Notes: generated by a model from the sequence alone, not told the origin. Shown: positions 1 to 32,000, counted from the stretch's first letter. The stretch: 32,000 nt of DNA from an uncultured bacterium (GCA_964640155.1 CAZXEQ010000007.1:1-32000), one strand, 5' to 3'. Translations and numbers: made by a program.

Positions 1-3000
1 CTCAAAGGTGAAACAGACAAAGTTACGGAGGATGCAAGTACGGAGAAATTGCTAACACTTGTAGCTGTACCGCCTGATGTTGTAACGGAAATTTTTCCTG
101 TGCTGGCGCCGACAGGCACAGTGGTTGTGATTTGAGTTGCAGAATCTACCGTAAAGATTGCAGACGTTGTATTGAATTTGACGTCCGTAGCACCTGTAAA
201 ATTTGTTCCTGTGATAGTGACAGATTTGGCAAGTCCACCACTGGTTGGAGTAAAGCTAGTAATGGTTGGAGGAGGTACGGTTACGGTCAGATTTAAAGTT
301 AATGGGCTGATGGTGATGCCTTCAGCACTTCCAGTCACTGTAAGTGTACTAGACCCTCCAGGTGTATTCGCAGTTGTATCAATGGTGAGCGTTGAACTAT
401 TTTCTGTGTTTTCATCTGCAGGGCTGAAAGTTGCTGTAGCCCCTGTTGGAAGGCCATTAACACCAAGGGTCACGCCATCTGTGAAATTGGTTCGATTTAT
501 ATTAATTGTGTAAGTTGTGCTTGCTCCCATTAGCACAGTTTGGGATGTGGGAGTTGCTGAAAGAGAAACAGAAACTGTAGGAGTTCCTCCGTCGGGCATT
601 CCATCATGGATAACCACATTTAGGACTTTTTCAAGAGCTTCTAGTACTCTCAAGTTTCTTTGATTATAGCCGTAGCGAAGACCTGAAGGTGTGAGGTTAG
701 AGGCATCCGATGAAGGATAGGAAGTTAAATGTAAACCATCTGAATCCATTCCTTGATTGAGCATATTTGGATCTTGCAAAGCTTTCCAAAAATTCATCAC
801 AGGAATTTGCTGGGCTTGTGCAACATCAATGATCATTTGATTGTATGCTGCGACACGAGATCCAAAGGTAGTATTATCCAAACGTGGGGGAATCGTGCTT
901 AAAACAGGTATGACGCCTGCATTGATTGTATCCATGATAATTTGATTAAGATTATTTTGAAAAGAGGTTAAGTCATTATAATTTTCCAAATCATATGTTC
1001 CATACATAATGACTGCGATGCTGGGTTTGGTTAAGTAAAGCTCGCATTTTAGAGCTGTATTATAAGGAGCAGGGCAAGAGGCGGAAGAAATAGCACCTAA
1101 TGCTCCATGAGTGCTCCATCCCTCGTCTGCTGAAACAGTACTTCTGTTAAATGAGTTAGGAATTCCACACCAACTGCCTCCACCTGTAACAGAGGTTGTA
1201 CGAAAATAATTGATCACGGTAGAAAGATGATTGGTATCACTGTCAAGTGTTTCAGAACTACACCCAACGTCCGATAAAAAGGCTCCGGATGCTGTAGCTG
1301 AATCTCCAATTTTTGCAAAAACACCTGAACGATTTCCTGCAGATTGGCCAGCCAAAAAAATGGCTTTCAATCGGGCTTTCATTGCAGAATCGATGTTTGG
1401 AGTGATGGGCATGTTGTCGGGGGTGTTCCCACCACTGGTTGTGATTAAAAAGTTGGTAGAACTTGTAGCCATGCCACCTGCGCTTGTAACATGGATGGGG
1501 CCCGTCGTAGCATTTGCGGGAACAGTTGCTGTAATCTGAGAGTCAGAATCGATTGTAAAAGTTGCACTCGTTGTATTGAATTCCACAGAAGTTACATCAG
1601 ATAAATTTGTTCCCGTGATGACAACAGAAGTACCTGCTTCTCCACTTGCGGGGCTGAATGAAGAAATAGTAGGAACAGGATGATTGATAGTCAGTGTTGC
1701 GGTGACGGGTGCAATGGTGATACCAGAAGCTGTTCCACTAATTGTAAGTGTTCTAGATCCTGTAGATGTACTTGCGGTTGTGTCGAGGGTTAATGTTGCG
1801 CTTGCCCCAGAGTTTGCTCCTGATGGATTAAATGATGTTGTAATGCCACTGGGTAAACCTGAAACACCGAGTGTTACATCCCCCGTGAAATCAGTGCGAT
1901 TGATGGCAATATTATAAGTGGCACTTTCGCCAGTCGTAATGGAATGACTTGCTGGAGTTATAGATAAACTTACAGAAGGGCTCGTAACAGTAAAAGGAGT
2001 CGAACTTGTAGCAGTTCCTCCCAGAGTTGAGACGCTGATAACACCTGTAGTGGCCCCCGATGGAACCACGGCTGTGATTTGAGTTGAAGAGTCAACTATG
2101 AAAACCGCTCCGACATCATTGAACTTAACAGAAGAAGCATTGGATAAATTTGTTCCTGTAATAACCACTGAAGTTCCAACTGTTCCACTTGCAGGACTGA
2201 ATGAAGAAATTGTAGGAACAGGATGATTGATAATCAGTGATGCTGTGACGGGTGCAATGGTGATACCAGAAGCTGTTGCAGAGACAGTCAGTGTGCTTGA
2301 GCTTATGGGTGTGTTAGTTGTTGTATCAATAGTTAACGTTGCGCTGTTTCCAGAATTTGTGCCTGTTGGGTTAAAAGAAGCTGTAGCCTCATTGGGTAAA
2401 CCTGAAACACCGAGTGTTACATCCCCCGTAAAATCAGTGCGATTGATGGCAATATTATAAGTGGCACTTTCTCCAGCCATGATTGTGTTGCTTGAGGGAG
2501 TCATGGATAAGCCAACGGAAGGAAGAGTCACGATAAAATTTGAAGAACTTATTGCAGCGCCCCCCGCAGTAGTTATAGAAATAACGCCTGTACTAGCGCC
2601 ACTTGGAACTGTTGTCGTAATTTGAGTTGTAGAATCAATGATAAAAGTAGCACTGGTGGTATTAAATTTGACAGAAGATGTATTCATTAAATTAGCACCT
2701 GTAATGATGACAGAAGTTCCCACAGATCCACTTGCGGGACTGAAAGAAGAAATCGTTGGAACTGGTGCATTTACAATAAGAGTTGTTGTTACAGGACTAA
2801 TGGTAATACCTGAAGCAGTCGCACTAATAGTAAGAGTGCTTGATCCTGTTACAGTATTCGTTGTTGTATTAATGGTGAGTACCGAACTATTTCCTGTCGT
2901 TGGGTCAGGACTGAAAGAAGCTGTTGCCCCGCTAGGTAATCCACTGATAGATAAATCAACGTTTCCAGAAAAATCTGTGCGATTAATAGAGAGAGTATAT

Positions 3001-6947: not shown

Positions 6948-7033
6948 GTCTTTCCCCTTTCGGTTAAGTGCTCTATTCAATTTACTGGAAGAATAGACAC
7001 GTTCACACCGAACGGGAAAAGAGAGGTCTCTTG

Positions 7034-7062
7034 AGATTAAAGAGTATTCACCTCTTTGGCAA
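7034..7062 (-). promoter_or_regulatory. Weak candidate sigma70-type promoter for the minus-strand giant gene
   Basis: On the minus strand: TTGCCA (7062-7057), a 17-nt spacer, then TAATCT (7039-7034). This would give a leader of about 85 nt. The -10 is poor. Confidence 0.2.
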
Positions 7063-7109
7063 CCTGGCGGCCCTTCTCTTTTTAAAGAGTCTCGGGTCCA
7101 TGGCTTTGC

Positions 7110-7133
7110 CCATGAACTAGATACAGTTCATGG
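7110..7133. promoter_or_regulatory. Perfect 8-bp inverted repeat (CCATGAAC-N8-GTTCATGG) in the divergent intergenic region; possible operator or hairpin
   Basis: Read directly: 7110-7117 CCATGAAC, loop tagataca, 7126-7133 GTTCATGG. Confidence 0.3.
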
Positions 7134-7419
7134 CTCCGAAGCTACTCGGAGGTCCTATCCTTCCAGATAGTTTGCCTTTTTCAAAGTACATCATTCAAAG
7201 AACAAGTATTCAATTTCTGATTATCATTCTCGTCCTCTTTTTCCAGAACTGCAAGAAAAAAGTAACAAAGATGAGCGCTCTAAAAAAAGTTTTTCCAATT
7301 CTGTATGAGAAGAATATTTTATAGACAAGATTGAAAGAATGAAGTTATAAAAAAATCAAAATATCGTTTATGGGGTTGAAAAATTTCAAAAAATTCTTTT
7401 AAAAAAATGATCCCAAAAC

Positions 7420-7520: not shown

Positions 7521-10500
7521 ATGGACCGATTCAAACGTTTTTTTTCTTGTCTGGTTGTATGTATTTTTTTTCTAAATGATGTTGTTTTAAACTTCGCCAA
7601 CGTGGCAATAGAAAAAACGACTCCCACTCATCGAAATGCTTCTCAAATTTCTTTAAATTCCCACTCAAGTTTACATATTCCTTCTAAGCTGGGTCAAATT
7701 ACAGAATCCTTTGAAGGAAAATCCAATCAAACCGTCATTCAAATTCAAGATGTGCATTGTCATTTTGAAGCCCAATCCAATGTTGCAAGAATTTTAGATG
7801 AAATTTTAAAAAAGCATGAAGGCCATGGTCTAGAAGTGATTAACGTTGAAGGATCCAGTGGCCTTCTGGATACCTCTCTTTTATCTTTATTCCCAGACAG
7901 CAAAATCAAAAAGTCCTTAGCTCTTTATTATTTGAAAAAGGGAAAAATCAATGGCGCGGAATTTCTCTCTATTACTAAAGATCGTCCTTTAAAGTTAAAC
8001 GGTGCGGAGAATTTAAATCTTTATTTTGAAAATTTGAAATGGTTTGATCGTTCTTTAAAATTAAGAAGAGATGCCCAGGAAACGCTTGAAAAGACAACTG
8101 AGATATTGGATCAACTAAAAGAAAAAGTTTATAACCTTGAGCTTAAAAAATATTTAACCCAGAAGAATGACTATGAAGAAAGTAAAACAGATATAGAAAC
8201 ATATTTAAATGGAGTGCAAAAACTTTCTGAAGAGAAGAACGTTAAAATCAATGATTTAGTGAATGTAGGTTTTTTTCTTAAATCTTCTAGAATGGGCCGT
8301 GAAATTCAGTTTGATAAAATTGAAGAAGAGCGAGCAAAAGTTATTGAAAAACTTTTACCAAAGCTTGATAAAAGTTCCCAGGCAGAATTTCTCACCAAAG
8401 GTTTGTATCTGAGATTGGAAAAGATTACACCTGAAGAATATTATCAGTATTTTGAGAGTTTGCTTAAGCTTGCAAATATTGAAATTAGCTCTACAGAGAA
8501 AAACTTCAATCAATATATACAATATCTCAAAGTGTTTGGTCAGATTCAAAAAGGCAAATTATTTGATGAAATGGATGAGTGGGAGAACAGGCTTAAAGAA
8601 AAATTAATGCAAAATGAAGAAGAACACAATTTAGAAAAAGCCAGCAAATATGTGAGTTTTCTTAAGAATTTTTATCATTTGGAGTTGACTAGAAAAGATC
8701 TCCAGTTTTATCAAGACAGCAAAAAGGATTTTGGTATTCATCAATTAAAAGAGATTCTTGAAAAACAAACAGTAAAATACAATATTCAGTTAGGTGAAGC
8801 ATCTCATGTTGAAAAGCTTGAAAAAGATTTGGCAGATCTAGAGGCTTTTTATAAAGCAGCTATCGCTCGTGATGCAGTGCTTGTAGAAAAGACTCTAGAG
8901 TCTTTTCAGTCGCCAGTTACAACACGCACAACGCAAGACGCACCCCGCACGACTGTCTTACTCGCTGGAGGATTTCATACTGAGGGCGTGGCGCAGAAAT
9001 TAAAAGAGAAGGGTGTTTCCTATGTTGTGATTACCCCTCGTGTGACAGAAATTCGAGCTAAAACACCTTATATTTCTGTCATGACGGATGAAAGAAGTGA
9101 ACTCGAGAATATTTTGGTGAAGGAAATATTTAAAAAACAGTCGTCGGTCGTCAGTCGACAGTCTTCAGTAAAGATAAATGAGACTGAAGGCAAATCTTCC
9201 TCACCAACTACAAATTTAAAATTCGCGACATCCAATGGTCAGTATAAACTGACAACCATCAAAAAACGAAAAACAGTCATTTCCGATACAGACTCTACCC
9301 AGCAAAATTCTAATACGGCTCTTGCAACGATGAGTTCTTCCCAAAATATAGATGCCCTAACAGCTGTTGCAGAAGTTGTAAGAGCAAGTGATCTAGATGT
9401 AGCTGCTGCTGTAGATAGAAAAGCAGAGGCGCTAAAATTGGCGATTGCAGAACAGGCTTTGGTGGCAAGGATCTCTGTTCTTTTGGCAGATCAAAGTTTC
9501 TATTTTTCAGCGAATGGTATGAGGCTTTGGGAAAATGCTGTTAGAGACTTTGCGATTCGTCAAAAAAACGTAAGAGAAATTTTATCTACAGCAAATTCGA
9601 TTCGTGTTACTGCCCAGAGACTTGGTGAAAAAATTTATTTGACTCTATCAGATTCAAATGGACAGGAAGTAGCGGGTTTCATTGTCGGTGAAAATTTTTC
9701 GAGAGAAGGACTTCTTGTTTTAGAGGGAAATTCTCTTTCGCTGCGAGATTTTCGAAAGGAGAGAAATTCTGCAAGACAGTTGGCAGAAAAAACTAAAAGT
9801 TCCTCCTCTAAGCCAACCCCATTAGGAGATGCTCCCTATAGAACTTTAGCTGGATCACGTATTGAAGCTCCTTCGAGTCCCCAATCGCGCCCAGTTTCAA
9901 GGGGAATTGGGGGAGCATATGGAAAACGTTTATGGGTTAGCGATGTGGGAGCTATGCTTATGGTTGTTGCGGCTGCTTGTGGGCCTGCTGTGGGAATGAC
10001 TACTTCACCCTCTGATGCGGATCAAGATGGCATGATTGTTCCAAAAGATGTAAAGACCACGGATGCTTCAGATGTGGATGCCTCTTTGACAGAGACTGGG
10101 GTAGATGCTGTGGAGTCTGAACCGACGATGGATGTTGGCGTTGTAGATGGGCCTGTTGCTACAGATGGTTTTTCAGGTGATACGTCTTCAATGGATGCTT
10201 TTACGGATACACGAGACGCTGGCGTGGATCGCATCGATGTAAGTTCTCTCGATGGTAGAATGGACGCAAGAATAGATGCAGTTGGCGCCGACAGTCGTTC
10301 AGATGTCGGATCAGATTCAAGAACTGATATTCCAATGGATGTTCGTATCAATCCAGCTCTTACGCTTATTGCAGTGACGGGACCCAGTGTGAGAGTTCTT
10401 CCTCACACGGTTGAGCCTGTGCCGGATAATATTTTTGAAACAGGAACTAATAGCAGTTTCTTTGGTCTTATCAGGTTAGATGGATCTATAGTTGAGACCC

Positions 10501-15263: not shown

Positions 15264-15272
15264 TTAAAGTTT

Positions 15273-15327
15273 GTCCCACAGGGACTGCAACCCCAAAGGG
15301 GCTATGCTAAAGCACTGCAAAAGCCCC
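15273..15327 (+). terminator. Cluster of short GC hairpins just after the stop codon; weak terminator candidate
   Basis: Three stems are present: GTCCC-aca-GGGAC (15273-15285), CCCC-aaa-GGGG (15291-15301), and GGGGC...GCCCC (15298-15302 with 15323-15327). There is no clean U-tract; only tgtaaaatctt follows. Confidence 0.25.
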
Positions 15328-15355
15328 TGTAAAATCTTGAGGCTTGTAACAACAT

Positions 15356-15411: not shown

Positions 15412-15525
15412 GACTACTTTTTGGACAGCCTCTTCTAATGACAAATCCTTGGTTTGTAGAGTTCGATCTTAAATAATGGCATTCTTTTGTTTAACAGAGG
15501 GAGAAAAATATCAAAAATCATTCCC

Positions 15526-21800: not shown

Positions 21801-24800
21801 GATGACAGGAGTTCAAACCAATACTCCTTTTGTTGAAGATACTCCTGCTCTTCATGCCCCGTTTTTTGTATATCAGGAAAATGTGACCCGGACTAGAGAT
21901 ACAACTTTGGACAGAGATATTTATAATCGTGTTACAAGTCATTTAGAAGTTCAAAATGATGCTGCTTCTTTTGGAACAGTGAGAACCACTTTGGTCACTG
22001 ACATGACTTATAATGCTATTACAGGATTACAAAGTGCTGAGAACCGCGAGACTTACACAGCGGGTTCAAGGATTATTGAACCTGATAACGCAGGCTATTT
22101 TAGAAATTTTAGAGTGATTGATAATTTTAGTGATTCTACCTTTTCCTCTTCTTCGGGAGTCCATGTCAGAACTTTTGCTTATACCTATGATGCAACTCCA
22201 ACTGATTTATTTAATGGAGATGAATTAACTTTTACGATGCAGGTGACAGGAACGGCTGTACGTGGTAGTGGTCCTGAGCTACCTAACCTTGATGCCACAC
22301 ATACAATCAATGCTGCTATTAGTCCAGAGTTGTGGGTTCCAACACAAGTGACTTATGATGCGACGAATACATCTGGAACATCAGTACAATCAGGGACATT
22401 AGACTTGAGCTATGATGCAGATTCTGGAATGGTAAGCAATTTTACACATGTAGGATCTGAATTGGGTGGAGGAGCTTTTGATTTTACATTTACAGGTATT
22501 GCTTATGATGGAAATAATCGCATGTCGAGGTATACACTCACAGATGCTTCAGTTGGTGCGCCCCCTTCAAATAGCAATACCTACGCGATGGAATATTATG
22601 TCACAACACGCAGTGAAGATACAAATGGAAATGGGTCACTTGATGCAGGTGAAGATACCATTTATGCTAATGGAACACTCGATACAAACATTGTCGAGTT
22701 TTCTAATCCGGCTCGTGGAACTTTGGTCAGTCGCTATGATCCAGCAGACTGGAGCATCGATGGCTATGTTCGAATGTCGACACTTGGAACTGCAGATACT
22801 GAAGTTGCTCAAGCGGGGCCAACATACGGAAGACTTTTGGATGAAGATGTAGACGCAGATGGGATGTTGGAAGGTAGTGAGGATCAAGATGGAGATGGGA
22901 TGAGAGATGTTCGTGGTTCTACTATTTCTATTCCTCCTCCTGGTCTTTCTTTTGGCCTGGTTGGGGTGGGTTTAAGAATTCCTACTTTTGCTTATCAAGA
23001 AGTAAGAGAATTTACTTCCAGAACTTTTAATAGTTATGATATTCGAGGGTTTGAGTCCGAAAGAACGGATGTGGTTATTTCAAGCGACACACCTGGTATT
23101 CGAAGAACTATTGTGACTGAAACAACAACCTCCGATTCTGGATTTACAGCCAGCACCACTAGAACAGAAAGCCATGCACGAAATAGTTATCAAACAGGGG
23201 GTGTCAGAGGCTTGGCTTGGGATTCATCAGCTACTGCACTTCGTGGAACAGCTCGCAGCTTTTTCTTTGATGATCGTGATCGCGTTCAGCGTCAGGCGAC
23301 GAGTGTTACCTATTATGTAAGTTCTGCTAACGGAACGGATGTTGTGTCCGGTGGTTCTACACAACCTGTAGGAGCTGTAGCTGGATATACGGTGGGGGGT
23401 GTGGTCTATTCCAATATTGTTTATGATGTATCACCCACTTCTCAGAATTATGGCATGATGAGCGAGTTTACGAGAAATGCAATACCTTATGATATTACTG
23501 CTTTTGATAATCATGGTCGTCCGACAGCATGGACATTTGGTGCCAATACGGTAACAGCAGTAACTTATGATTTAGAAGATCAGGTGGTTGCGAATGTTTC
23601 TTCTACGGATGTGTCTCCGGGAGGTGGAATTTATCGCTATACTTTGAATGCGGGGGTTCCAGTAACGGCAACAGCTTTAACTGCACCTCTTGATGATTCA
23701 CTGATTGGAAACATTAACAGTGTTCTTTTTATGCAATATTCAACTCATGACACTCGCTCCGTAAGCGAATTTCAATATGACAATCAGGGAAGAACGATTT
23801 ACGAAGAAGTAACCAGTGTTGATGATCAAAGGCTTACTTCGAGACAGCAAGTGATTAATCGAACCAATGCTTGGCATTCCAGTGGACTTCCATTTTATAC
23901 TTCAACAAGTCAGTCTAGTATTGGAATGGATTTTACAGGTTTGGATTTATATGGAGCTACATATGACCCTTCTGATCCTTTAAGATTGACAGGGTTTAGC
24001 ATGTTTGTGAGATCTGGTCCGGGGCGTGTCAATACACCAACCAATCTTCCTGTCAACACAACAACTAATGAGGGAACAGTTATTACAGTGAGTGATATTG
24101 TGTGGGAAACTACTGGGACCGAGGATAGCACTGGGAGATTGGTCATACATCGACCTATCTCTTTTACATATAATGTAGATTTTCCTCCAAGCATGGGCAC
24201 AGATATTAATGGCGCTACATTTTCCTCACCCACTTATAATGAAACAGATTTTTTTGATCGTAATAGTGGTGCTATGACAGGTTTTACTTTTACGGAAGGG
24301 GCGGTAACGACAACAGTGACTGGGATTGCCTATGACAATATGAGAAGGTATTCCAACTATACTAGTTTTAATGGCACGACAACTACGACAACGCCCGTGA
24401 CACTTTATAACCCCGTGACAGGACGAGCTCAATCACCCTCAACTTTGACGGGTCTTCCTTCACTTCCCATTTTTTATTTTCAGGATGTTCGTAATTTTGT
24501 GGAAGACCTGAATGGTAATGAACAGATAACGGAATCTGTCATTGAGCATGATCGATATTTGAGAGAATTAAATGTAAGAAGTCATGAAGTTGAAAATGCA
24601 ACTCCTGCCTTGAGAATTTTTAGAGATACTCGAAATACCTATCGTCAGGGAGAGGCTGTACAGGTGAGGACCTTTGTAAGGAAAGTAGGAGACACAGAGA
24701 ATACCGGAGGGCTTCGCAGTGTGACGCGTTATGGAGCAGCTTCCCCGTATGCCAATAGAATTTCCGGGTATGAATATTTAAGCGTTTCTGGAACTTTGAC

Positions 24801-27800
24801 AGTTTCTAATATTACTTATTCAACGGAACCAGGTTTGGAAGATGTGATTGTTAGTTGGAATGTTTATGATGGGACTACAACTACTACTAATACCATGACT
24901 CCTTATACAACCACCATTACTGCATCTGGTCAGTTTGCGGGTCGACCTCAAGTAATTAATAATACCTATCGGGATACGCTTATTGACAGTATCGTTTATG
25001 AAAGTGGAGGGGTTGTTACTCCTGATACAGCCCGTCCGACAAGTTGGAATCAAGGGAATATGCAATTTGATGGTGTTACTGTAACTGGAACTTTCAGGAT
25101 GGCTATTTCAGGTGTCAGTTATGCTGCACCTGCAGCTGGAACTGAATTTCCTCCTATACTAACTGTTAGTTCGTATAGCATCAATCCAGGTTCTGGGGGA
25201 AATAGATCTATTCGATCTCCTGCATTAGGACTTTTGCGGGAACTTGATTGGTCGGTAGCGTATCCACCCGGATTCAAAAATGTGCGAAATACGGTGGATT
25301 TGCAAACTTTGTCTATTGAGAGAAGGGCAAGAGATATTGGAGGAAATATTATTGGGAGCTTTACAAAGGAGAGAGATCAGAGTAAACCAGGTTTAACGAC
25401 TTATCGCACAATAAGTCGAGGTTTTGGGAGCACAGGTCTTGCAATTCGAGAACGCGAAATTGCTCAGGAAAGGGGTTTTAATGTTTCATCTTTGTCCTTG
25501 CCGTTTGGAACGCTTATAGGTGCTACGTTTGCGAGTGGAGACTTGGATGGTGAGATAGATACGTTGCGTATGCGATTTAACTCAGGCTCCAGAACGATCA
25601 ATGCAACACTGAGCAATTTTGTCATTCCCCCGGGTGGTTTTTTGCCTACGCAATATGAAGTAGCGTTGACTGGGGTGGGGATTGGAGGATCGGTTACTCA
25701 GATAGTCTATATCAATCCGGACAGCGATTTTTATCAAACTTATAGCGACACGCGTACTTTCGGTAGACCCAGATCTTTTAGAGTTGAGACCATTTCTGGA
25801 AATGCAGAAAGCATGGTTTCTATTGAAGACATTCATTATGATCTAGAAAATACAGTGACTTCTCGGCGTGGCTTCCCAAGAGATTTTAGAATCAGGTGGG
25901 ATGAAAATTTGGTAGATGGTGTTAGAATTGACTCTACGGGTACGAATGTAGGTGGTACCCCCAGCGGAGATAATATATGGGGATATGATTATGATGCGAA
26001 TGGAGATGGTGATGTGGATGATCCAGGGGATATCGATCAAGATCCTACTATTCCTACGACATTTGATGGAATTCAAAGGGATTTCTTGGGGAATATTTTA
26101 GCCATGAGTTATTATTTGCCGAATGGTTTGTTTTCACCGTCTGTTCCTTATGGAGATGTAGACGGGGATAATATTTTAAGAAGTCCCATTGATATTACAA
26201 ATGCAACTTTAAGTACGACAGGACCAACAGCTAACAATGCAGGTCGTTATCAAAGTTGGGTGTATCATTTTCAAAGAAACAGTGGTTTTCAAGCAACAGG
26301 AACTTTTATCTATGATGCTCCTGGCTTTCCAGGAACGGATGGCTATACTGCGCAGCTTAACAATACTGCTCCCTCTGCTGGTTTTCGTCTAGGACTTGAC
26401 ACAGATGGGGTTCCTGCGACAATTGAAATCGATGAAGCTTTTGTTCAGGGAACATATACAGTTAGCTCGGGCGGTGTTGCTTATGATGATAACGGCTATG
26501 TTCGTACCCTGACTGTAGGTTTTGCTCCACGTGCAGATCCGTCTTGGGGCTCAATGCCTTCCAGAACATTCACCTATGACACAACCACAACCGATGATGA
26601 ATTTGGTAGTACAGGTTTAGCTGCTCAGATGCGTGCTTTTTTCTATCCAACCCATCGCATGTTTGGTTATCAAGTTTCAGCAGAACCTTTGAATTTGGGA
26701 ATTCAGTTTGATGCAGATGGCATAGGAGGAACAGATTCAGGGGCGCTTATGGCCAATCGCATGATCACCTACGATATTCTATCACGAGACGAGGTAACAG
26801 ATCGGCATATTTTTTATAACTCTAGGGACATTCCGTTAGGTACACTAAGTCGGAAGGTATCCAATTCGGCTTCTCGAGTAGTGACTTATGAGGACATTGT
26901 TCGCCATGGAAATAATCTAGGCCAAATTGATTATCAAAGGACCATGAAGCGGGATAGAGATATTGGGGCTTCTGCTACGTCAGCTGCTTGGTATACGGGA
27001 GATGTATTGACTCGAAAAAATCCTGAAATGATATTCAATGATGCAGCTAGTACTATTGCAGGTCAGCAAGATGAGTATGTCTATGAGTTACTGGGGATTG
27101 GACATGAAGTCACGGGCGGAGAATACAATTTTAATCTTTTAAACTATACTCCCGGTTTTGAAGTGAGTTATTTAAGTCCGACCATTACAGCTATTTTAGC
27201 TCAAAATATATTGGGTATTCGAGATGGCGGGCTCGGTTTTGCAACGGAGTTTGAGCAAGCGGCTGCACAGGTGGTTTCTGGAATAGGATTTAGTCCTTCA
27301 GATCCAGATCCTCTTTACACAACTCAAGGGACGGTTCTTTATGGAAATCCTGTTCCGGGAGGATCAGGTTCCATTTTTAATTATCAAATGTCGGGTTTAG
27401 AGTATTCCGAGTTGGCTTCTTCTTTTGATGAGCCAATCGATTATCTCTTAGGCTTTTCTCCTTATGTTCCGACGGAATATGGAGAGAGTACAACAAGGCC
27501 TGGATCAGCGGCAGGATTACGTACCCCTGTTAATTCTAATGTTCGAGCCTTCTTAAATGGTTTACATATTCAGCTTCGCGACACCATTCGTACCGATGAA
27601 ATCACAGAAGAAAGATTTGTGTTTAATGTTTTTGGTCAGGTCATTGCGCAGTTTCAAGAGATTCAAACAAGTCTAAATAATCGAGGCGGTTTAATTACTT
27701 TTGTTGAGCAAGCGATTTTCTTTAATGCTGCCGGTTTAATTGATCGAACGATTACAGAGACCAGAGAATTATCAAGACAACGTGCTGAAGAAATTGCTAA

Positions 27801-30800
27801 TGGCCGATTATCGGCAGATCAGATTCAAGCCGAGACCCGAGTCCAGGATGTGAATGCGCAACAGCAGGCTGAAGAACGGGGCCGCAGAATAGAATCTACG
27901 TCTCGTGAGTCTGAGCGAGGTGCTGAAGCGACGCTTGAAGGCGCAGACGAATCTACATTCAATGTACGCGCTCCGAGTTTTGGTGAATTAACTCTTATTC
28001 CCTATGAATCATATTTTGCATATTTGTTTTATGATCTGACGGGTTATCGTACCCGTGAAGAACCTACACGAACCCCTCCAGGAATTACACCTGGACGAGG
28101 TGAGAGTACAGCAGCACCTGCCCGTGTGTCTGAAACCAGAGAAACAGAAAGGGAACGAGAAAAATATACGTATACGGAAACACAGTTTAATTACAATCGA
28201 ATGGGGCAAGCAGTTGAAGAATATTCTTTGGAGCGTGGTTTAGATCGTGTTGAACGACGCACATTTACTTCCAGGCTTTTTGATCTTTTAGGGCGGGTTC
28301 GTTTTGAATTACGCCGGATTCTTGAACAAGATATCGATGGCATTGGCGCACGTCAAGCTGCTGCAGCTGCAAGAGGTAGAGGTCTCCAGCTTATGTTGGG
28401 TGCGATACAGGTACCTTTTGTGATGGGCGCAGGCATGATGGGTGGATTTTCAGTTCAAATGATGATGATGCGCTCGGGAAGTTTTTATGATGTTTCTGGA
28501 ATTGGTTTAGGAATGGGTTCAACTCTTTTGGGTGGAGCTCCTGCACCAATAGACGAATCTCCTGAGTTACCACAGGATGGAACTGTTGAGGGTCTTATGC
28601 GTCGGGCAGCAGGGTTGGAAGTTCAGCTTGTTTTGGGAGCCATGCTCAGATCGCCAGATTTAACTCCTCGGGATATAATGTCGCCGCCCGAAGTTGCGGA
28701 TGATGAACCGCTTCCGATTGGACTAACGCCAACTTCTCCGGGTGAAGGGATTGGAATTTCTCCTGAGGCAGGTACAATCGGAGAAACTGGATATAGTGAT
28801 GTTCGAAATTGGATTGATCGAATCATTCAACAAGGGCCCGCAGGTACAGGGGCCGAAAATCAAATCATGGTGAATTTGGTAGGTGCTCAATTAGGCAATA
28901 CCCGCGAGCGACCTCATGTGGCAGAAAATCGTGGAGTTAATAATGAAACCACAACCATCACTTGGTATAGCTATGATTATCGTGGAAGAATGTTAGGTCG
29001 AGATACCTATACCATTGATCGTTCTCGTCCTGCTTTAACACAACATAGTTCAGAGGTGTTGCATTATCGTGGCTTTAATGAGGCTTATCGGCGTGATTAT
29101 TCAAATGATAGTCATGGAATAGATTTTAATAATCCAGAGTTTCGCGATGCTCAGATTGTGAGTCGAGATAGAAACAATCTTGTTTTAAGAGCCAGAGACG
29201 GTACGCGTATCGAAGTTCAGATGGATCCTGCTCATCCGGATCGTATGCTGAGTCAAACACTTATTTATCCAAATGGTCAGCGAGAAACCTATAGTAATTT
29301 TGAATACGATGTGAATGGGCAAGTTACTCGATTTAGACATACAGATAGAGGTAGTCAAACAGTTCAGACGGACATTGCACGAGATGCTCGGAGTGGAGCC
29401 ATTACGGGTTACACAAAATCACAAGTGATTCCTGCTTCCAATGGGCAAGCTGAGCGACTTGAAGAGACTCGACGTGTGACCCAGATTATTGAGAATAATC
29501 GTGTTGTGGGATATAGCGTAAGAGAAGGCGGAGTTGGTGGTCCAACACAAGAATATAGAAATATTCAACAAGGCGGTGCTGCAGGGCAAGGCATAGCAAG
29601 TTTTCAACGTTGTGGAAGCGGAAATACAAATTGCGAGACGGTTACTAATCCATCTGCTGAAGATCAGGCATTTCTTCAAGGATTATCAAATCCTCTTCAA
29701 GGCCAGCGCACAGCTCCTCCAGTTGCTATTCTGAATTCTTCCAGCCGAGGAACACAATATCTTTACTATGATCAGAACCGTTCTGTTGTCTTCACTGCAG
29801 AGGTCAGATGGGATAGTTCCAGGCCTAATGCAGTCACTCAAGTTTATACAGCTTATAAATACAATAATTATGGTGAAGTGATTGATCAACAGAGTCTAAC
29901 AGGTGAAGGGACACCAGAACAAATAGGTGCTTTTGTTCCTCCTGCTTTAGATCAAGACTCAGATAGCAGAGGTTTGTCACGGGCTCAGACAGCTGGAAAT
30001 GTCAGACGACTTTTGCAAGAATCGCGAGCAGGTTCAGGAGGACCGGGAGAAAGACGTTCGCCAACTCCAGAAGATTTAGGTTCCATGGAAAGAGAAGATT
30101 TTATTTATCCGCCCGGTTTAGGTCCCGATCCAATTAGACCTAGAGAAAGTGATATGGGGTTAGGCGTACAACCGTTGAGTCCAGATGCACTGCAGCAAGC
30201 AGACCGTATCCAGCCAGGCCGTCCAGAGGGTTCGGGTCTTGTAGAACCCATTCGAACAGAAAATATTCTTCAATATCAAGTGACACCTTTGGAGGGTCGT
30301 GATGGCGACTTGACTCCAGGAGGAGCAGGTTTTCGGATGATTCAAGAAGATACAGGTTCTTTGGGGTCAGGATTAGGAGATTGGAATTTAGGAGGTGCTG
30401 ATTTTCAAATGGGAGGACTGGAAGACTCAAGGAATTTGGGAACAAGTGTTTCTCTTTTAAATCTTTTAATTTCTGGTTTAGAGAGATCTCCATCACAACC
30501 TGATTTTCAAATGAATCGTTTGATAGATGAAAGTCGAATGACGGTTCGAGAAGGCTTAAGAGGTCCAGATATCAGTGGAGTAGAAATTCCTGATCGTGGC
30601 AGTATTGAATTGTCGGGAGATATTTTACACCTTATGGCGGGTGGCTTAATGGATAGCAGAGGATTGGGTGCAGATATGACTTTAGGAGTAGCAGGAGCAG
30701 GGTTTGGTTTGGGTATTTTCAATTTTGAAAATGCGACACGTCAGACAGGATCTACGACAAGAACATCAACAATTAATTTTGTTTCTTTATTTCTTTTAGG

Positions 30801-32000
30801 CCCTGAGCCTTTACGAGGTGAACGTGGAGGATGGGAGGATTTTCGTGGAGAACAAGAGCAAGAAGGTGCTGAAGGAACGCCTGAAGAAATACAAGAACAG
30901 CCTGCCATATTCTCAAGTCGTACTGAAAGACAAGAAGGGAATCGACATATTGTTACTGAAGATACAATGGTAACCCGTGATGGCCGGACCACACGTACGC
31001 ATACAGAAATTACAACAGAAACTACAACCGATGCACAAGGTCGTGAAAGAACTCAAACAACGGTTCATCAGGTAATTGAGACCGAAGATCGTAGAGTTTC
31101 AAGAACATTTGTAACCGGGCCTGATGGACGAGTGACCGTTGCCACAGAGAGTCGAAATCTTAGAACAGGTGAGGTGGAATCAAGTCCAGCCTCTCCATGG
31201 CCAGAAGGAACGACAGTGACAACAAGGCAAGGTGAAAATGGTCCTGAGGTTGTGGTTACATTCCCTGCACATCCAGTGACTTCTACCAATGATCCTCATG
31301 TCGGACAACAGCGACAACTTCAAATTATTTACAACTCAGATGGAACAAGAACTCAAGTAGAAAATTATCGTTCAGCTGATGGGCGTACGACAACAGTTAG
31401 AGAAGACTATGACATCAATGGACGCTTTCAGCGGACAACCACTTCGGAAGGGCTTCCAGATGGGACTCGAATCAATACGAATGAACGTGGTGAAGCAACG
31501 GTCACACGTCCAGGCGCTCCTGAGCCGGCCCCTGCAAATCGTCAAGGTGTTCGTTGGACAAGAGAGCGTACACAATTTGGTTATGATGAACGTGGTCGTG
31601 TGGTATGGCAGTCCCGAGAGACAAGAGATAATTTTTCTTCTACAGTAACCAAGGTTGTCAGTCGCATGGCGTATGATCAATATGGCCGAGAGCGCGACAG
31701 GCAATCCAGCACTTTTGTGAATGGATATGATATTTCAGGTCTTGACGGAGAAGAAATTCTTAATCCAGTTGCTGATCCCAATGATCCTACAGGCAGAAGA
31801 CTGATTTCATTTGAAGTGCGTATCAATGGACAAGTCCATCGTGTTCAAAATATTCAATATTGTGGTCAAGGTGGAAATCAGATGTGCGGATACACCGTTC
31901 GAGATGCACGGGGTGGTGTTGTGATACAAGTCGAGAAAGCTTATGACGGACCTAATGGGGCTCTCTCAAGTACTCGTATTTTACAAAATGGGCAGTGGAC
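15802..32000 (+). CDS. Giant YD-repeat (Rhs/teneurin-type) protein with N-terminal membrane anchor; 3' end beyond the right window edge (>=5399 aa)
   Basis: I translated frame 1 by hand from the ATG at 15802 to 32000 and found no stop codon. GGAG lies at 15789-15792, 9 nt upstream of the ATG, and an in-frame stop lies at 15766-15768. The N-terminus is MSFFASVKKSYWAKGVNVALSLVFIMWDIASTGF. There are more than 35 YD-type hairpin motifs, including TQFDIAGRETRV, SASYDIHGRETGS, IAYDIAGRQTRY, TTYDVFGRSEDT, EFQYDNQGRTIYEE, SYDYRGRMLGRD, FEYDVNGQVTRF, DYDINGRFQRT, FGYDERGRVVWQ and MAYDQYGRERD. The ORF is absent from the track because it is not closed inside the window. Confidence 0.9.
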   Translation, partial: MSFFASVKKSYWAKGVNVALSLVFIMWDIASTGFTEAVYNSPTKSPIEEPAVTASQAKTRAAHEEEMQRQMSVQEQLRNRSRESAVTQIGRQGLLANLPGNRLDKQAELDRMLQAQKYQNENEYIGRKNGADELGKHIASLGINITLGKRNLASAALNVPTGISGVNRQNITNGAIRSVPGMRPNGIFNMQITFAGKLFANLNQEQMRGNVLVGITHMTGPITLEGISGAAYENGKQVDIFKAPDLSKVFISQYTNTSIDPKGNKIVTDIKQKYTDTPTEKQLLDKPIDILSTTVDENKGVTTKTHTFDIDYYTSDDEANGKFKGYRSAYESVTELSYAPLAPIHSFVSEVKYTKKSVKSDLEALGVTDQPQLDGDDGKGNRILVDDQVQVDYQKFGCTYENAESCDNTPVTTFKHTKFNEYNVFGEVVRYTEEGFRILGGERAGDVPSNMNIANFSSQRGHYPQAIDYEIEFKNAGYNALGQLIVFDQITLDGGSRLTQHSTREYDLFNRVAKAVDQFTDGEGTRWVETTEFLSYFERGSVSAGLVREQRKTTHYLNSDQPDVVETQTFTYDERFGLIATAVGTRVSDGITEEFESTFEYDDFANVIFQRSIQHYTGSSDIAPDGIDFTRTTETTSDYDRYRRVTRKETSTIEGPYQGVDNIDGSGAGTTREFFNTTTVVQTDFSYCHGCFLAVAYSELETHSGLSTSFVGPIFDLDGRLIGYGPMQTVNVNYTISRRYTDIRYATINGQQTQWPTYMNIEISDSRYPNVNETRTVENFSFNSRGFVTSSRTTTHRWGSYTITDVSDPLFGQVITLDVTTVEILESASYFPNGAIRTFRKRLIDGTGLEIIVERLDTSYIPLVNVPSRTVERTNKRGLIFVETYEAVEVGRDLQVHAYDLRRELGDPMFRTELTQRRNIIINTLLVPVMFTDTVTVTSAAGTMIETRIERTRVTGFEDGTGRQISSHFISVSRRANGDMITIQDNQEQRTNAFGQAQETMTYQEQRTHTAATTFESIFVNPAYYPDGTTVLPYAVASSEHTVDIVYQPYELPNTYTRTRNDFNPNYDQNADSTLDVAVRSVLDITTQVQRLATTHHFGQEETFHEVITAPDAANVGDQVAKRNARADVTIDRRQTAATFNTTTFNVESFVQVTRETGTDSVTGEILDATTTNTTSSIAVNTLGQLVSQNEVLDLPTGDTVTTQTTDTTYNELGLKTGETQRISRSGETDKYVIRTLSNGAYTVANQLYSFTNASTTYIGGVQGITVTVTRVADTANGVALATQFDIAGRETRVSEFTRTTGSGTDSIGNTLSIDTLVKEYTLNTYNAVSQVTSSESYILDDLSDGVEDDAGSVQHISRTRTYNLLGQVQTESDESFSTRADDLIVQNSRSLTDRYANGLENQYTATEVRQQVTASVNFATKTFSSAVVDPPAFRTRAVTTRASTLYFDSTSTFGGKLRGFEEDVQEAYWNTGTLAYVNFDYETRNIRLFNSTDGYNTSGNANHYASHEIRMDTLGGTQGDEYLTYDVIDRQSTTYNVFEQVFGYTQVTSNLSPPLTRTTLVTGGTISAFPPTLTTLSTLPTLPISSAPGVQETTVFSRGFYNDQGHLYSSRRVDTDNFTSVTRTTNQVSASYDIHGRETGSIQTIATLALDGTTTVLNTLVERTTTGITYDSASGTEDFDLLREQSVQTQDFDATLTTPTPLPVTTLEETRNIAYDIAGRQTRYIQLTDRTADAGSTIPDLPDGLRTRSVESLTGITYNGFNLVTSRSTTRNDSSRPWALTSRVEETTYDVFGRSEDTLTTDTEMSHEISGMGFSLPVSSGTTPDFLTAYFAQGASPSYGVDFQLLRQGVFSYTATTNMSVTTTGIINLDTDNDGTIEAGEGYLNVDVDGDGAISVAESARRVLASYRYTDSSGTYTVNLDVDGDGRLDQGTEFDINTGHSLSYIWQNTSGGSATTVSNMVFNDQNRLTQYFNGTSTVSVTYSTDPTLNAHRAEIPEAAMTGVQTNTPFVEDTPALHAPFFVYQENVTRTRDTTLDRDIYNRVTSHLEVQNDAASFGTVRTTLVTDMTYNAITGLQSAENRETYTAGSRIIEPDNAGYFRNFRVIDNFSDSTFSSSSGVHVRTFAYTYDATPTDLFNGDELTFTMQVTGTAVRGSGPELPNLDATHTINAAISPELWVPTQVTYDATNTSGTSVQSGTLDLSYDADSGMVSNFTHVGSELGGGAFDFTFTGIAYDGNNRMSRYTLTDASVGAPPSNSNTYAMEYYVTTRSEDTNGNGSLDAGEDTIYANGTLDTNIVEFSNPARGTLVSRYDPADWSIDGYVRMSTLGTADTEVAQAGPTYGRLLDEDVDADGMLEGSEDQDGDGMRDVRGSTISIPPPGLSFGLVGVGLRIPTFAYQEVREFTSRTFNSYDIRGFESERTDVVISSDTPGIRRTIVTETTTSDSGFTASTTRTESHARNSYQTGGVRGLAWDSSATALRGTARSFFFDDRDRVQRQATSVTYYVSSANGTDVVSGGSTQPVGAVAGYTVGGVVYSNIVYDVSPTSQNYGMMSEFTRNAIPYDITAFDNHGRPTAWTFGANTVTAVTYDLEDQVVANVSSTDVSPGGGIYRYTLNAGVPVTATALTAPLDDSLIGNINSVLFMQYSTHDTRSVSEFQYDNQGRTIYEEVTSVDDQRLTSRQQVINRTNAWHSSGLPFYTSTSQSSIGMDFTGLDLYGATYDPSDPLRLTGFSMFVRSGPGRVNTPTNLPVNTTTNEGTVITVSDIVWETTGTEDSTGRLVIHRPISFTYNVDFPPSMGTDINGATFSSPTYNETDFFDRNSGAMTGFTFTEGAVTTTVTGIAYDNMRRYSNYTSFNGTTTTTTPVTLYNPVTGRAQSPSTLTGLPSLPIFYFQDVRNFVEDLNGNEQITESVIEHDRYLRELNVRSHEVENATPALRIFRDTRNTYRQGEAVQVRTFVRKVGDTENTGGLRSVTRYGAASPYANRISGYEYLSVSGTLTVSNITYSTEPGLEDVIVSWNVYDGTTTTTNTMTPYTTTITASGQFAGRPQVINNTYRDTLIDSIVYESGGVVTPDTARPTSWNQGNMQFDGVTVTGTFRMAISGVSYAAPAAGTEFPPILTVSSYSINPGSGGNRSIRSPALGLLRELDWSVAYPPGFKNVRNTVDLQTLSIERRARDIGGNIIGSFTKERDQSKPGLTTYRTISRGFGSTGLAIREREIAQERGFNVSSLSLPFGTLIGATFASGDLDGEIDTLRMRFNSGSRTINATLSNFVIPPGGFLPTQYEVALTGVGIGGSVTQIVYINPDSDFYQTYSDTRTFGRPRSFRVETISGNAESMVSIEDIHYDLENTVTSRRGFPRDFRIRWDENLVDGVRIDSTGTNVGGTPSGDNIWGYDYDANGDGDVDDPGDIDQDPTIPTTFDGIQRDFLGNILAMSYYLPNGLFSPSVPYGDVDGDNILRSPIDITNATLSTTGPTANNAGRYQSWVYHFQRNSGFQATGTFIYDAPGFPGTDGYTAQLNNTAPSAGFRLGLDTDGVPATIEIDEAFVQGTYTVSSGGVAYDDNGYVRTLTVGFAPRADPSWGSMPSRTFTYDTTTTDDEFGSTGLAAQMRAFFYPTHRMFGYQVSAEPLNLGIQFDADGIGGTDSGALMANRMITYDILSRDEVTDRHIFYNSRDIPLGTLSRKVSNSASRVVTYEDIVRHGNNLGQIDYQRTMKRDRDIGASATSAAWYTGDVLTRKNPEMIFNDAASTIAGQQDEYVYELLGIGHEVTGGEYNFNLLNYTPGFEVSYLSPTITAILAQNILGIRDGGLGFATEFEQAAAQVVSGIGFSPSDPDPLYTTQGTVLYGNPVPGGSGSIFNYQMSGLEYSELASSFDEPIDYLLGFSPYVPTEYGESTTRPGSAAGLRTPVNSNVRAFLNGLHIQLRDTIRTDEITEERFVFNVFGQVIAQFQEIQTSLNNRGGLITFVEQAIFFNAAGLIDRTITETRELSRQRAEEIANGRLSADQIQAETRVQDVNAQQQAEERGRRIESTSRESERGAEATLEGADESTFNVRAPSFGELTLIPYESYFAYLFYDLTGYRTREEPTRTPPGITPGRGESTAAPARVSETRETEREREKYTYTETQFNYNRMGQAVEEYSLERGLDRVERRTFTSRLFDLLGRVRFELRRILEQDIDGIGARQAAAAARGRGLQLMLGAIQVPFVMGAGMMGGFSVQMMMMRSGSFYDVSGIGLGMGSTLLGGAPAPIDESPELPQDGTVEGLMRRAAGLEVQLVLGAMLRSPDLTPRDIMSPPEVADDEPLPIGLTPTSPGEGIGISPEAGTIGETGYSDVRNWIDRIIQQGPAGTGAENQIMVNLVGAQLGNTRERPHVAENRGVNNETTTITWYSYDYRGRMLGRDTYTIDRSRPALTQHSSEVLHYRGFNEAYRRDYSNDSHGIDFNNPEFRDAQIVSRDRNNLVLRARDGTRIEVQMDPAHPDRMLSQTLIYPNGQRETYSNFEYDVNGQVTRFRHTDRGSQTVQTDIARDARSGAITGYTKSQVIPASNGQAERLEETRRVTQIIENNRVVGYSVREGGVGGPTQEYRNIQQGGAAGQGIASFQRCGSGNTNCETVTNPSAEDQAFLQGLSNPLQGQRTAPPVAILNSSSRGTQYLYYDQNRSVVFTAEVRWDSSRPNAVTQVYTAYKYNNYGEVIDQQSLTGEGTPEQIGAFVPPALDQDSDSRGLSRAQTAGNVRRLLQESRAGSGGPGERRSPTPEDLGSMEREDFIYPPGLGPDPIRPRESDMGLGVQPLSPDALQQADRIQPGRPEGSGLVEPIRTENILQYQVTPLEGRDGDLTPGGAGFRMIQEDTGSLGSGLGDWNLGGADFQMGGLEDSRNLGTSVSLLNLLISGLERSPSQPDFQMNRLIDESRMTVREGLRGPDISGVEIPDRGSIELSGDILHLMAGGLMDSRGLGADMTLGVAGAGFGLGIFNFENATRQTGSTTRTSTINFVSLFLLGPEPLRGERGGWEDFRGEQEQEGAEGTPEEIQEQPAIFSSRTERQEGNRHIVTEDTMVTRDGRTTRTHTEITTETTTDAQGRERTQTTVHQVIETEDRRVSRTFVTGPDGRVTVATESRNLRTGEVESSPASPWPEGTTVTTRQGENGPEVVVTFPAHPVTSTNDPHVGQQRQLQIIYNSDGTRTQVENYRSADGRTTTVREDYDINGRFQRTTTSEGLPDGTRINTNERGEATVTRPGAPEPAPANRQGVRWTRERTQFGYDERGRVVWQSRETRDNFSSTVTKVVSRMAYDQYGRERDRQSSTFVNGYDISGLDGEEILNPVADPNDPTGRRLISFEVRINGQVHRVQNIQYCGQGGNQMCGYTVRDARGGVVIQVEKAYDGPNGALSSTRILQNGQW
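15844..15903 (+). other. N-terminal transmembrane anchor / uncleaved signal of the giant YD protein
   Basis: GVNVALSLVFIMWDIASTGF follows the basic KKSYWAK. I saw no obvious AxA cleavage site. Confidence 0.5.
21412..21591 (+). other. Cluster of three DxDxDG calcium-binding-like loops
   Basis: DTDNDGTIEAGE (21412-), DVDGDGAISVAE (21463-21480 core) and DVDGDGRLDQG (21565-21591). Confidence 0.5.
22615..22908 (+). other. Asp-rich calcium-binding-like loops (thrombospondin type 3 / EF-hand-like)
   Basis: EDTNGNGSLDAGEDTIYANGTLD (22615-22683) and DEDVDADGMLEGSEDQDGDGMRD (22840-22908). Confidence 0.5.
25984..26193 (+). other. Asp-rich calcium-binding-like loops
   Basis: YDYDANGDGDVDDPGDIDQD (25984-26043) and GDVDGDNILRSPID (26155-26193). 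Confidence 0.45.
27766..27951 (+). other. Highly charged helical (coiled-coil-like) segment inside the giant YD protein
   Basis: ELSRQRAEEIANGRLSADQIQAETRVQDVNAQQQAEERGRRIESTSRESERGAEATLEGADE. It contains no YD motifs, and its E/R/Q/A-rich composition contrasts with the flanking T/S/N/Y-rich sequence. Confidence 0.45.
28381..28548 (+). other. Gly/Met-rich hydrophobic, glycine-zipper-like segment
   Basis: GLQLMLGAIQVPFVMGAGMMGGFSVQMMMMRSGSFYDVSGIGLGMGSTLLGGAPAP. Confidence 0.5.
30622..30804 (+). other. Second Gly-rich hydrophobic, glycine-zipper-like segment
   Basis: ILHLMAGGLMDSRGLGADMTLGVAGAGFGLGIFNF ... INFVSLFLLGP. It is preceded by the Gly-rich GSLGSGLGDWNLGGADFQMGGL (about 30355-30420). 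Confidence 0.45.

Follow-up and report, generated by a model that had tools for sequence, protein, structure and literature searches.

The stretch of DNA analyzed here (GCA_964640155.1 CAZXEQ010000007.1:1-32000, 32,000 nucleotides from an uncultured bacterium, called the window below) is probably a piece of an Omnitrophota-type chromosome that carries three large, independent genes for cell-envelope proteins rather than the parts of one machine. We infer the catalytic activity, localization and topology discussed below, as well as any role in contact with a host or prey. A six-frame scan of the window found three stretches of 300 or more codons without a stop, and no others, at 3-7127 on the minus strand and at 7497-15260 and 15772-31998 on the plus strand, and the open reading frames (ORFs) that they contain, counted from the first ATG per frame, cover 96.5% of the 32 kb (6947 + 7743 + 16199 nt). 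An earlier note on this DNA had given three ORFs of at least 2315, about 2580 and at least 5399 codons filling about 96% of the window, with the same lengths in nucleotides, a divergent ORF1 and ORF2 and a gap of 538 bp between ORF2 and ORF3, all of which we reproduced exactly. Its remark that two of the ORFs are missing from the ORF track is also true and reflects the omission of ORFs that run off an edge. The layout is as follows.

6947..1, minus strand: ORF1, at least 2315 codons, left edge open
7521..15263, plus strand: ORF2, complete, 2580 amino acids (aa) from the ATG or 2587 aa from GTG 7500
15264..15801, no strand: ORF2-ORF3 spacer of 538 bp, with one terminator-like site and several promoter-like sites
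15802..32000, plus strand: ORF3, at least 5399 codons, right edge open

ORF1 and ORF2 diverge from a spacer of 573 bp, and ORF2 and ORF3 are co-directional. A stop-free frame of 5409 codons at 42% GC cannot have a chance origin, and reassignment of a stop codon was ruled out as the cause of the long frames because genetic code table 11 is already the most stop-rich reading. The GC content at third codon positions (GC3) is 0.27-0.29, with the same codon-position GC pattern, along the full length of all three frames. A Shine-Dalgarno (SD)-like motif precedes the ATG of each ORF, that of ORF2 being AAGGGGG 7 nt before the start. A hydropathy scan, used in place of a dedicated predictor, identified an N-terminal hydrophobic segment in all three ORFs, as expected from the hydrophobic anchor or signal that the earlier note had assigned to each, and two internal segments in ORF2.

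We consider it highly improbable that the giant frames are artefacts of assembly or annotation, in which a chimeric contig, collapsed repeats or hidden frameshifts would have merged ordinary genes. A 10.9-kb contig in the Logan assembly of SRR8893623, the only result of an exact-protein look-up with ORF2, lies wholly inside the window and spans the 5' end of ORF1, the whole of ORF2 and the 5' end of ORF3; it is 100% identical to the window over 5223-16118 (10,896 nt) and encodes an identical ORF2 protein, so that ORF2 and both its junctions are independently reproduced. The uniform GC3 and codon-position pattern and the length of ORF2, which is typical for its family, also argue against merged genes, and errors add stops and would not erase the approximately 250 stops expected in a 16-kb frame. 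Tandem Repeats Finder detected no tandem repeats in the 32 kb, and dispersed direct DNA repeats are confined to ORF1. There, at window positions 40-5259, a unit of approximately 540 nt occurs in seven diverged copies (60-80% identity), and a super-repeat of approximately 3 kb (a TIG block plus a GDSL domain) includes 300-nt copies at 3307-3606 and 4960-5259 that are 91% identical. These copies are what speaks for an artefact, given that the Logan contig stops at 5223, within the copy at 4960-5259. As the repeats lie in ORF1 only and the independent contig ends in one of them, the only assembly error that could be present concerns the module copy number in ORF1. Mis-assembly, which the earlier note had named as grounds for abandoning its proposal, is thus largely removed for 5223-16118 and remains for that copy number. 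The same note had described all three products as repeat-rich; this is accurate for ORF1 but does not extend to ORF2 and ORF3, neither of which has DNA repeats and both of which have almost no internal protein similarity by BLAST.

ORF2 as a whole has no sequence match in Pfam, NCBIfam or the PDB. Its N-terminal part defines a family, established here by homologues, an alignment and an AlphaFold2 model.

7530..9200, plus strand: ORF2 N-terminal anchor (aa 4-30) and conserved head (aa 31-560)

Besides the NCBI copy of ORF2 (P0001, on a contig of 185,047 bp), a homology search yielded 26 proteins between 1812 and 4457 aa in length, with E values from 4e-168 to 1e-5, which BLAST aligns to aa 1-560 of ORF2 only; the exception is a JGI protein, P0002, with 44% head identity, which also shares the last ~700 aa. 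The relatives come from metagenome-assembled genomes (MAGs) labelled Omnitrophota, Chlamydiota and Endomicrobium, and the bodies that follow their heads include phosphoglucomutase (PGM), phosphofructokinase (PFK), UGPase, glutamine synthetase, FBPase/PGK, kinases, HEAT and HATPase. When one genome was scanned for each GTDB species, the head was located in 80 loci. Omnitrophota account for 49 of the 80 by record title, the others being 15 third-party assemblies of 'uncultured Planctomycetia', nine unclassified bacteria and seven further records (one each of Auribacter, Auribacterota, Elusimicrobiota, Endomicrobiaceae, Makaraimicrobium, Chlamydiae and Deltaproteobacteria). None of these loci exceeds 35% identity to the ORF2 head, and the source species is therefore not among them. 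In nearly all of 82 loci, no more than approximately 90 codons separate the ORF start from the head, and the ORFs that it leads are mostly 1.9-3.9 thousand residues long or longer; in about 10 loci a stand-alone head of ~520-710 aa is followed by a separate ORF. Several loci in Omnitrophota genomes have co-directional tandem arrays of head-led genes (L028, L038, L047 and L060), and many have another co-directional ORF of at least 3200 aa upstream. As judged from these alignments, the ORF2 family is composed of a putative membrane anchor, a head of ~530 aa and a variable body and occurs mainly in Omnitrophota MAGs; no Pfam family covers the head, which appears to be undescribed. This distribution upholds the link to Omnitrophota that the earlier note had drawn, as does the literature, in which giant Omnitrophota proteins are tied to attachment and cell-wall digestion (bioRxiv 10.1101/2023.11.21.568195).

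We predict that the ORF2 head is probably an active hydrolase of the TIKI superfamily, either a protease or an esterase, based on the model, the residue pattern D-x-H...E...R...H and weak ChaN matches. AlphaFold2 applied to the alignment of 27 heads produced a model with a predicted local distance difference test score (pLDDT) of 82.5 and a predicted template modeling score (pTM) of 0.73. The model has an N-terminal helix followed by a beta-sheet core (strands 70-77, 106-109, 158-162, 476-483 and 500-506) that is split by an all-helical insertion of ~300 aa (aa 165-460), and the strand ends carry the conserved D-x-H, E and GGFH residues. H79, E110, R450, G483, G484, H486 and P506 are invariant in the 27-head alignment, where D77 is conserved in at least 90%; D77 is invariant in the core set of 23 sequences. 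TIKI enzymes have in common a set of two His and two Glu residues and one conserved basic residue, borne on a parallel sheet of five strands, and in RRSP this set is E3900-x-H3902, E3930, R4001 and H4030 (PMC6254334). The head pattern D77-x-H79, E110, R450, H486 follows the TIKI order with an Asp in place of the first Glu, in a comparison of patterns rather than a structural superposition. The spacing from H to E is 31 aa in the head versus 28 aa in RRSP and Bcr135, and that from R to H is 36 aa versus 29 aa in RRSP. Among the core sequences, no Pfam family other than PF04187 (ChaN, Tiki superfamily) has more than a single match; PF04187 matches 5 of 23 (best E 8.7e-5), and its alignments always place its C-terminal R...GxxH region onto the R450...H486 region of the head. 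Weak Foldseek matches in the PDB include the erythromycin esterase EreC at rank 9 and ChaN at rank 32. No mention of a TIKI-like domain was found in the available parts of the two preprints on Omnitrophota giant genes or in a wider literature search.

Beyond the head, the ORF2 chain contains two further hydrophobic segments and a tail.

9936..10001, plus strand: internal signal-peptide-like hydrophobic segment 1 (aa 806-827), ...MLMVVAAAC-G
11205..11273, plus strand: internal lipoprotein-signal-like segment 2 (aa 1229-1251), LLRLLVACMFFAVMGC-S
12978..15260, plus strand: C-terminal tail (~aa 1820-2580), common to P0002 only, 25-28% identity

Basic residues precede both internal segments, each of which has a terminal Cys in a lipobox-like context and is followed within ~12 residues by DADQD and then by an Asp-rich linker and a Lys-poor module. 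The lysine content of ORF2 changes from ~11% in the head to ~1% at aa ~800-1800 (window ~9920-12920) and ~6% in the tail, and P0002 and a second relative, P0019, repeat the pattern of a signal-like segment followed by a lysine-free stretch. The repeated DADQD (9936-10040 and 11205-11320) has the appearance of a duplicated 'module start'. The tail shares the conserved motifs FLRGGRVSP and KADPET with P0002; it contains no known domain, its profile has no match in the PDB, and a contig scan with the tail alignment was empty. We also observed a canonical HExxH (NHEIAHARGADE) in the tail of P0002 (locus L082, 387-10373). At its apparent equivalent in ORF2 (~12980-13100), matched by eye and outside the tail alignment, the sequence is HELTPH (HExxxH), which could be a degenerate metallopeptidase motif and has no family or PDB match. 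We hypothesize that ORF2 is held by its N-terminal anchor and that the TIKI-like head may process either the modular body behind it or other substrates in the envelope.

It is doubtful, though conceivable, that ORF2 and perhaps ORF3 are polyproteins, with the internal signal- or lipobox-like segments acting as real export or cleavage signals and the chain being cut into anchored or lipidated Lys-poor modules by the TIKI-like head or signal peptidases; alternatively, modules could arise by internal initiation at TTG1233, which has an SD-like AAGGA 9 nt upstream. The terminal Cys and DADQD shared by the two segments, the basic residues before and acidic residues after each, and the Lys-poor stretches that begin directly after such segments in ORF2, P0002 and P0019 are consistent with this idea, as is the difficulty of threading three segments of the same orientation in one chain. 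West-Roberts et al. have proposed that N-terminal peptidases may cleave giant proteins (bioRxiv 10.1101/2023.11.21.568195). However, Sec is not known to use internal signal peptides once a large domain has been translocated, BLAST detects no similarity between the two modules past the short motif, and the segments may be plain transmembrane helices, which occur at approximately one per 370-600 aa in Omnitrophota giants. We advance with equal reserve a wider proposal: the head would be an undescribed active TIKI-type peptidase that defines modular 'polyproteins', mostly in Omnitrophota, in which the segments punctuate lysine-free exported modules released at the surface by the head or by signal peptidases, ORF3 being a free-standing product of the same export logic.

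The relatives in which PGM, PFK, UGPase, glutamine synthetase, kinase and HEAT follow the same head raise another alternative, that ORF2 is a membrane-tethered scaffold of the 'multi-enzyme metabolic cluster' type facing the cytoplasm rather than an envelope or surface protein. Nielsen and Lui describe such architectures, including topologies with transmembrane segments only and most of the protein on the cytoplasmic side (bioRxiv 10.64898/2026.06.07.730766), and the head and tail of ORF2 have a normal lysine content. We regard a cytoplasmic scaffold as improbable: ORF2 itself has no enzyme domain, the basic residues before its N-terminal anchor favor an exported head, and its middle modules resemble exported lipoprotein-type sequences.

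ORF3 is also predicted to be exported, and its sequence has the following features.

ORF3 aa 1-31, plus strand: signal-like N-terminus, read from the sequence
ORF3 aa 32-560, plus strand: Lys-containing region, from composition, the remainder being Thr/Arg-rich and nearly Lys-free
17482..27651, plus strand: body with sparse degenerate YD/Rhs-type units (aa 561-3950), consensus ..T.......YD..GR
21412..21609, plus strand: cluster of EF-hand/dockerin-like DxDxDG loops (aa 1871-1936), from a regular-expression scan, sub-threshold
28369..28551, plus strand: Gly/Met-rich hydrophobic stretch (aa ~4190-4250) after a charged helical region

Past aa ~560 (17482-32000), ORF3 has 21 lysines in 4840 residues (0.43%), including a lysine-free run of 1503 aa (aa 1458-2960), with approximately 7% Arg, 12% Thr and low GC3; this depletion resembles that of the secreted ORF1. 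All eight cysteines lie in close pairs, four in number (398/406, 688/691, 4604/4611 and 5354/5362). Such pairs are typical for extracytoplasmic disulfide loops. Additional DxDxDG loops lie at aa 2273, 2349, 2361 and 3396, and the sub-threshold calcium-loop matches at aa ~1870-1930 are to EF-hand_5 (E 0.002), Dockerin_1 (E 1.3), XopAW (E 0.02) and PDB 3akb (E 0.15). Judging by its composition, the stretch at aa ~4190-4250 could be a membrane-active or membrane-embedded segment.

The motif [YF][DN]xxG[RQ] occurs 17 times in ORF3 versus 0.61 expected, a 28-fold enrichment (maximum of 5 in 2000 shuffles), and YDxxGR occurs eight times versus 0.09 expected. An iterated profile recognizes ~30 YD-type units, and a profile built from 20 of ORF3's own units places the Rhs structures 8h8a (E 2.8e-10) and 8h8b (E 3.5e-9) at the top of 177,635 PDB sequences, with a weak match to the Rhs effector Tse15. 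On these sequence patterns we interpret the units as being of the YD/Rhs type, unrecognized by curated Rhs models. Against Pfam and NCBIfam at permissive thresholds ORF3 has no family beyond the sub-threshold EF-hand, its PDB sequence search was empty, a word-index search with aa 1-2500 returned no relatives, and its C-terminus has no match in scans of genome or metagenome contigs; these homology negatives are weak, as the libraries lack ORF3 itself and a word-index search with the ORF2 tail missed ORF2's own copy. The only HMMER match of aa 4200-5399 among 1.84 billion representatives (P0030) was rejected as spurious, since its score adds up a match of 29 aa across 26 tandem copies. ORF3 is an orphan in the sense that no relative was found in the searched collections. 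We hypothesize that it is a lineage-specific secreted giant whose body would consist of strongly diverged beta-hairpin units of the YD/Rhs type, together with calcium-binding loops, and most likely an extended, calcium-stabilized extracellular fibre or shell for contact with other cells.

The enrichment of YD-like motifs and the profile matches to 8h8a, 8h8b and, weakly, Tse15 would also be expected if ORF3 were a true Rhs/Tc-type polymorphic toxin, with a closed YD shell that encloses a C-terminal toxin until an Rhs-core aspartyl autoprotease frees it, and with an immunity gene downstream. ORF3 is open at the window edge, and the core and toxin could lie beyond it. We nevertheless judge a toxin unlikely. 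Rhs shells consist of a dense run of repeats, whereas ORF3 has only ~30 units in 5400 aa and matches neither the Pfam RHS_repeat nor the NCBIfam YD-repeat model, and no Rhs core motif (DPxGL or PxxxxDPxGL) occurs within aa 1-5399. ORF3 is, moreover, already several times longer than a shell requires and has EF-hand-like loops and a Sec-type signal, not the PAAR or VgrG-linked N-termini. The earlier note had set ORF3 against Rhs/Tc shells as far larger and still open at the edge; the several-fold greater length and the open end stand, but the likeness itself comes from sparse degenerate YD motifs only.

In ORF1 and its leader, domains of known type were recognized.

ORF1 aa 1-71, minus strand: signal or anchor, two hydrophobic stretches, the second ending ...KPAQA-A, a signal-peptidase-like site
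6084-6440, minus strand: right-handed beta-helix (aa 170-288), Pfam Beta_helix, E 3.6e-8, 33.6 bits
ORF1 aa ~669-809 and ~1215-1833, minus strand: TIG/IPT blocks, Pfam TIG, seven stretches, E 7.7e-46, 154 bits
3750-4109, minus strand: GDSL/SGNH esterase 1 (aa ~947-1066), Pfam Lipase_GDSL_2
723-1187, minus strand: GDSL/SGNH esterase 2 (aa 1921-2075), Pfam Lipase_GDSL_2
7055..7186, minus strand: aptamer of a cyclic di-GMP (c-di-GMP)-I riboswitch (GEMM-I class), Rfam RF01051, ~108 nt upstream of the ORF1 ATG
7000..7014, minus strand: terminator-like hairpin and T-run between the aptamer and the ORF1 start, from a consensus scan and folding

The TIG, Lipase_GDSL_2 (E 2.8e-25, 90 bits in ORF1) and Beta_helix matches all exceed the Pfam gathering cut-offs, and the NCBIfam repeat CoaZ_rpt_PGGG ('choice-of-anchor Z') is present in seven copies. 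This domain content is that of an ordinary large multidomain protein of the adhesin/esterase type, with secretion as the predicted fate. The adhesion and polysaccharide-active domains to which the earlier note referred are accordingly present in ORF1 (TIG, esterase and beta-helix) but not in ORF2, where only the hydrolase-like head is recognizable. We also noted an antisense ORF of 175 aa inside ORF1 (2638-3165, plus strand), which is most likely a by-product of the codon composition of ORF1 and not a gene.

The stop-free stretch upstream of the ORF1 ATG (6948-7127) is leader RNA and not coding. The leader is strongly structured (fold z = -4.9), and the RF01051 match covers the full model (1-87) at 37.5 bits versus a gathering score of 35 (E 4.8e-4), with a 61-nt insertion in the first hairpin of the aptamer. 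Given that a clan sibling, c-di-GMP-I-GGC (RF03167), scores similarly (E 5.5e-6 in a local rerun), c-di-GMP is a putative ligand. The hairpin at 7000..7014 is a candidate expression platform. We predict from these sequence matches that transcription of ORF1 is probably gated by c-di-GMP through the leader riboswitch, which would make production of ORF1 follow the transition between attached and free life that this second messenger usually controls; the protein, made under this control, would be exported as an adhesin/esterase. The earlier note had stated that no secretion-system, chaperone, immunity or regulator gene lies between the ORFs, and there is indeed no intervening gene, but the riboswitch is a cis-regulator in the ORF1 leader.

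In the 80 related loci, tblastn found no match to ORF1, to the body of ORF2 or to ORF3, and in the closest relative of ORF2, response regulators and Pst (phosphate-transport) genes follow the head-led gene. Conserved synteny in related genomes, a check that the earlier note had suggested, was looked for in the 80 loci and not found, none having ORF1- or ORF3-like neighbors; the three genes are not conserved as a unit. The spacer between ORF2 and ORF3 has no Rfam match, and its first 200 nt past the ORF2 stop (15264-15460) contain short inverted repeats such as GGGGCT...AGCCCC and GCAATCT...AGATTGC. No tRNA was found in the 32-kb window.

A number of results count against our interpretation of the window and are best considered together. 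For the head, Foldseek found no PDB match to the model at E<=0.001, the PF04187 matches reach 12-14 bits versus a cut-off of 27.7 and do not include the ORF2 head itself, and PDB sequence searches returned only calmodulin-type noise with the head profile and nothing with a core-only profile. Each of the three hydrophobic segments of ORF2 looks N-in/C-out, a combination that does not fit the topology of a single chain left uncut; processing of the chain, missed crossings or ordinary transmembrane helices would be the possible accounts. For ORF3, there is no match to RHS_repeat PF05593 (Pfam, E<=5) or the YD-repeat TIGR01643 (NCBIfam, E<=1), the YD units are sparse (approximately one per 180 aa), and a single-sequence AlphaFold2 model of aa 1180-1830 (pLDDT 30) was unusable. 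Regarding the locus, the adjacency of ORF2 and ORF3 is absent in the closest relative and in the 80 head loci, and secretion genes are absent from the window, as are type II secretion system, pilus and glycoside hydrolase genes within the 32 kb. Finally, because the window contains no taxonomic marker and the head identity to the genome loci is at most 35%, the phylum is assigned by the distribution of the family only. Despite these points, we posit that three independent envelope protein genes on an Omnitrophota-type chromosome are the probable content of the window.

Very long anchored proteins of Omnitrophota are already published, and this locus is a modest example. The following appear to be undescribed: the family of TIKI-like heads, the depletion of lysine in stretches that follow internal signal-like segments, ORF3 as an orphan of the YD type and the riboswitch before ORF1. 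A conserved head that can be aligned, was modelled with confidence and has a full TIKI-like catalytic set offers a testable biochemical handle on modular Omnitrophota proteins of 2-4.5 thousand residues and, as it has no Pfam model, also a marker for finding them. The loss of lysine directly after internal signal-like segments may mark exported regions, and a c-di-GMP riboswitch before ORF1 would directly link a second messenger to a large surface protein in an uncultivated lineage.

Among known systems, the TIKI superfamily (Tiki, TraB/PrgY, erythromycin esterases, ChaN and RRSP) resembles the ORF2 head in the predicted beta-sheet core flanked by helices and in the order of an acid-x-His, a Glu ~30 aa on, an Arg, and a His ~30 aa further on. 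The superfamily is known for variable appended domains, and the bodies of the ORF2 family vary likewise. Unlike its described members, the head has a core split by the helical insertion of ~300 aa and an Asp for the first Glu, leads proteins of 2-4.5 thousand residues and is matched by no curated family above threshold. ORF3 shares with Rhs/YD-repeat proteins (Rhs effectors of the type VI secretion system, the B/C components of Tc toxins and teneurins) the YDxxGR-type motif after a Thr-rich strand, and it differs from them in its calcium loops, near absence of lysine, Sec-type signal and several-fold shell length. The arrangement at ORF1, with an aptamer in the 5' leader of a large surface-protein gene and a terminator-like hairpin downstream, parallels that of adhesin genes controlled by c-di-GMP-I riboswitches, from which it departs in an aptamer score barely over the threshold (37.5 versus 35) and in the 61-nt insertion.

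The giant proteins of Omnitrophota are the broadest comparison. They reach 85,804 aa and 147,155 aa and have been associated with attachment and with the digestion of cell walls (bioRxiv 10.1101/2023.11.21.568195; bioRxiv 10.64898/2026.06.07.730766). Giants are defined as having at least 10,000 aa by Nielsen and Lui (bioRxiv 10.64898/2026.06.07.730766) and more than 30,000 aa by West-Roberts et al. (bioRxiv 10.1101/2023.11.21.568195); ORF2, complete at 2580 aa, is below both definitions, and ORF1 (at least 2315 aa) and ORF3 (at least 5399 aa) are open-ended. The window ORFs, at 2.3-5.4 thousand residues or more, thus differ in size from a catalogue that begins at 10 thousand and from headline cases of 30-147 thousand. 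SecA-DEAD, C39, S8, dockerin and TSP3 have no above-threshold Pfam match in the three ORFs (only Dockerin_1 at E 1.3), and the available parts of the two preprints contain no mention that we could find of lysine depletion or a riboswitch. The products of the window resemble the Omnitrophota giants in their great length, their N-terminal anchors or signals, the scarcity of annotation and the hydrophobic segments hundreds of residues apart, as in the transmembrane helices catalogued in those giants (approximately one per 370-600 aa; bioRxiv 10.64898/2026.06.07.730766). Some of the giants have attachment or carbohydrate-active domains and Rhs-like beta structures. The antiparallel, Rhs-like beta-helical tubules that West-Roberts et al. 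describe in unannotated parts of Omnitrophota giants (bioRxiv 10.1101/2023.11.21.568195) would be the nearest published analogue for ORF3. The set of PGM, PFK, kinases, HEAT and HATPase found in the relatives of ORF2 matches the one given for the 'multi-enzyme'/signalling class by Nielsen and Lui (bioRxiv 10.64898/2026.06.07.730766).

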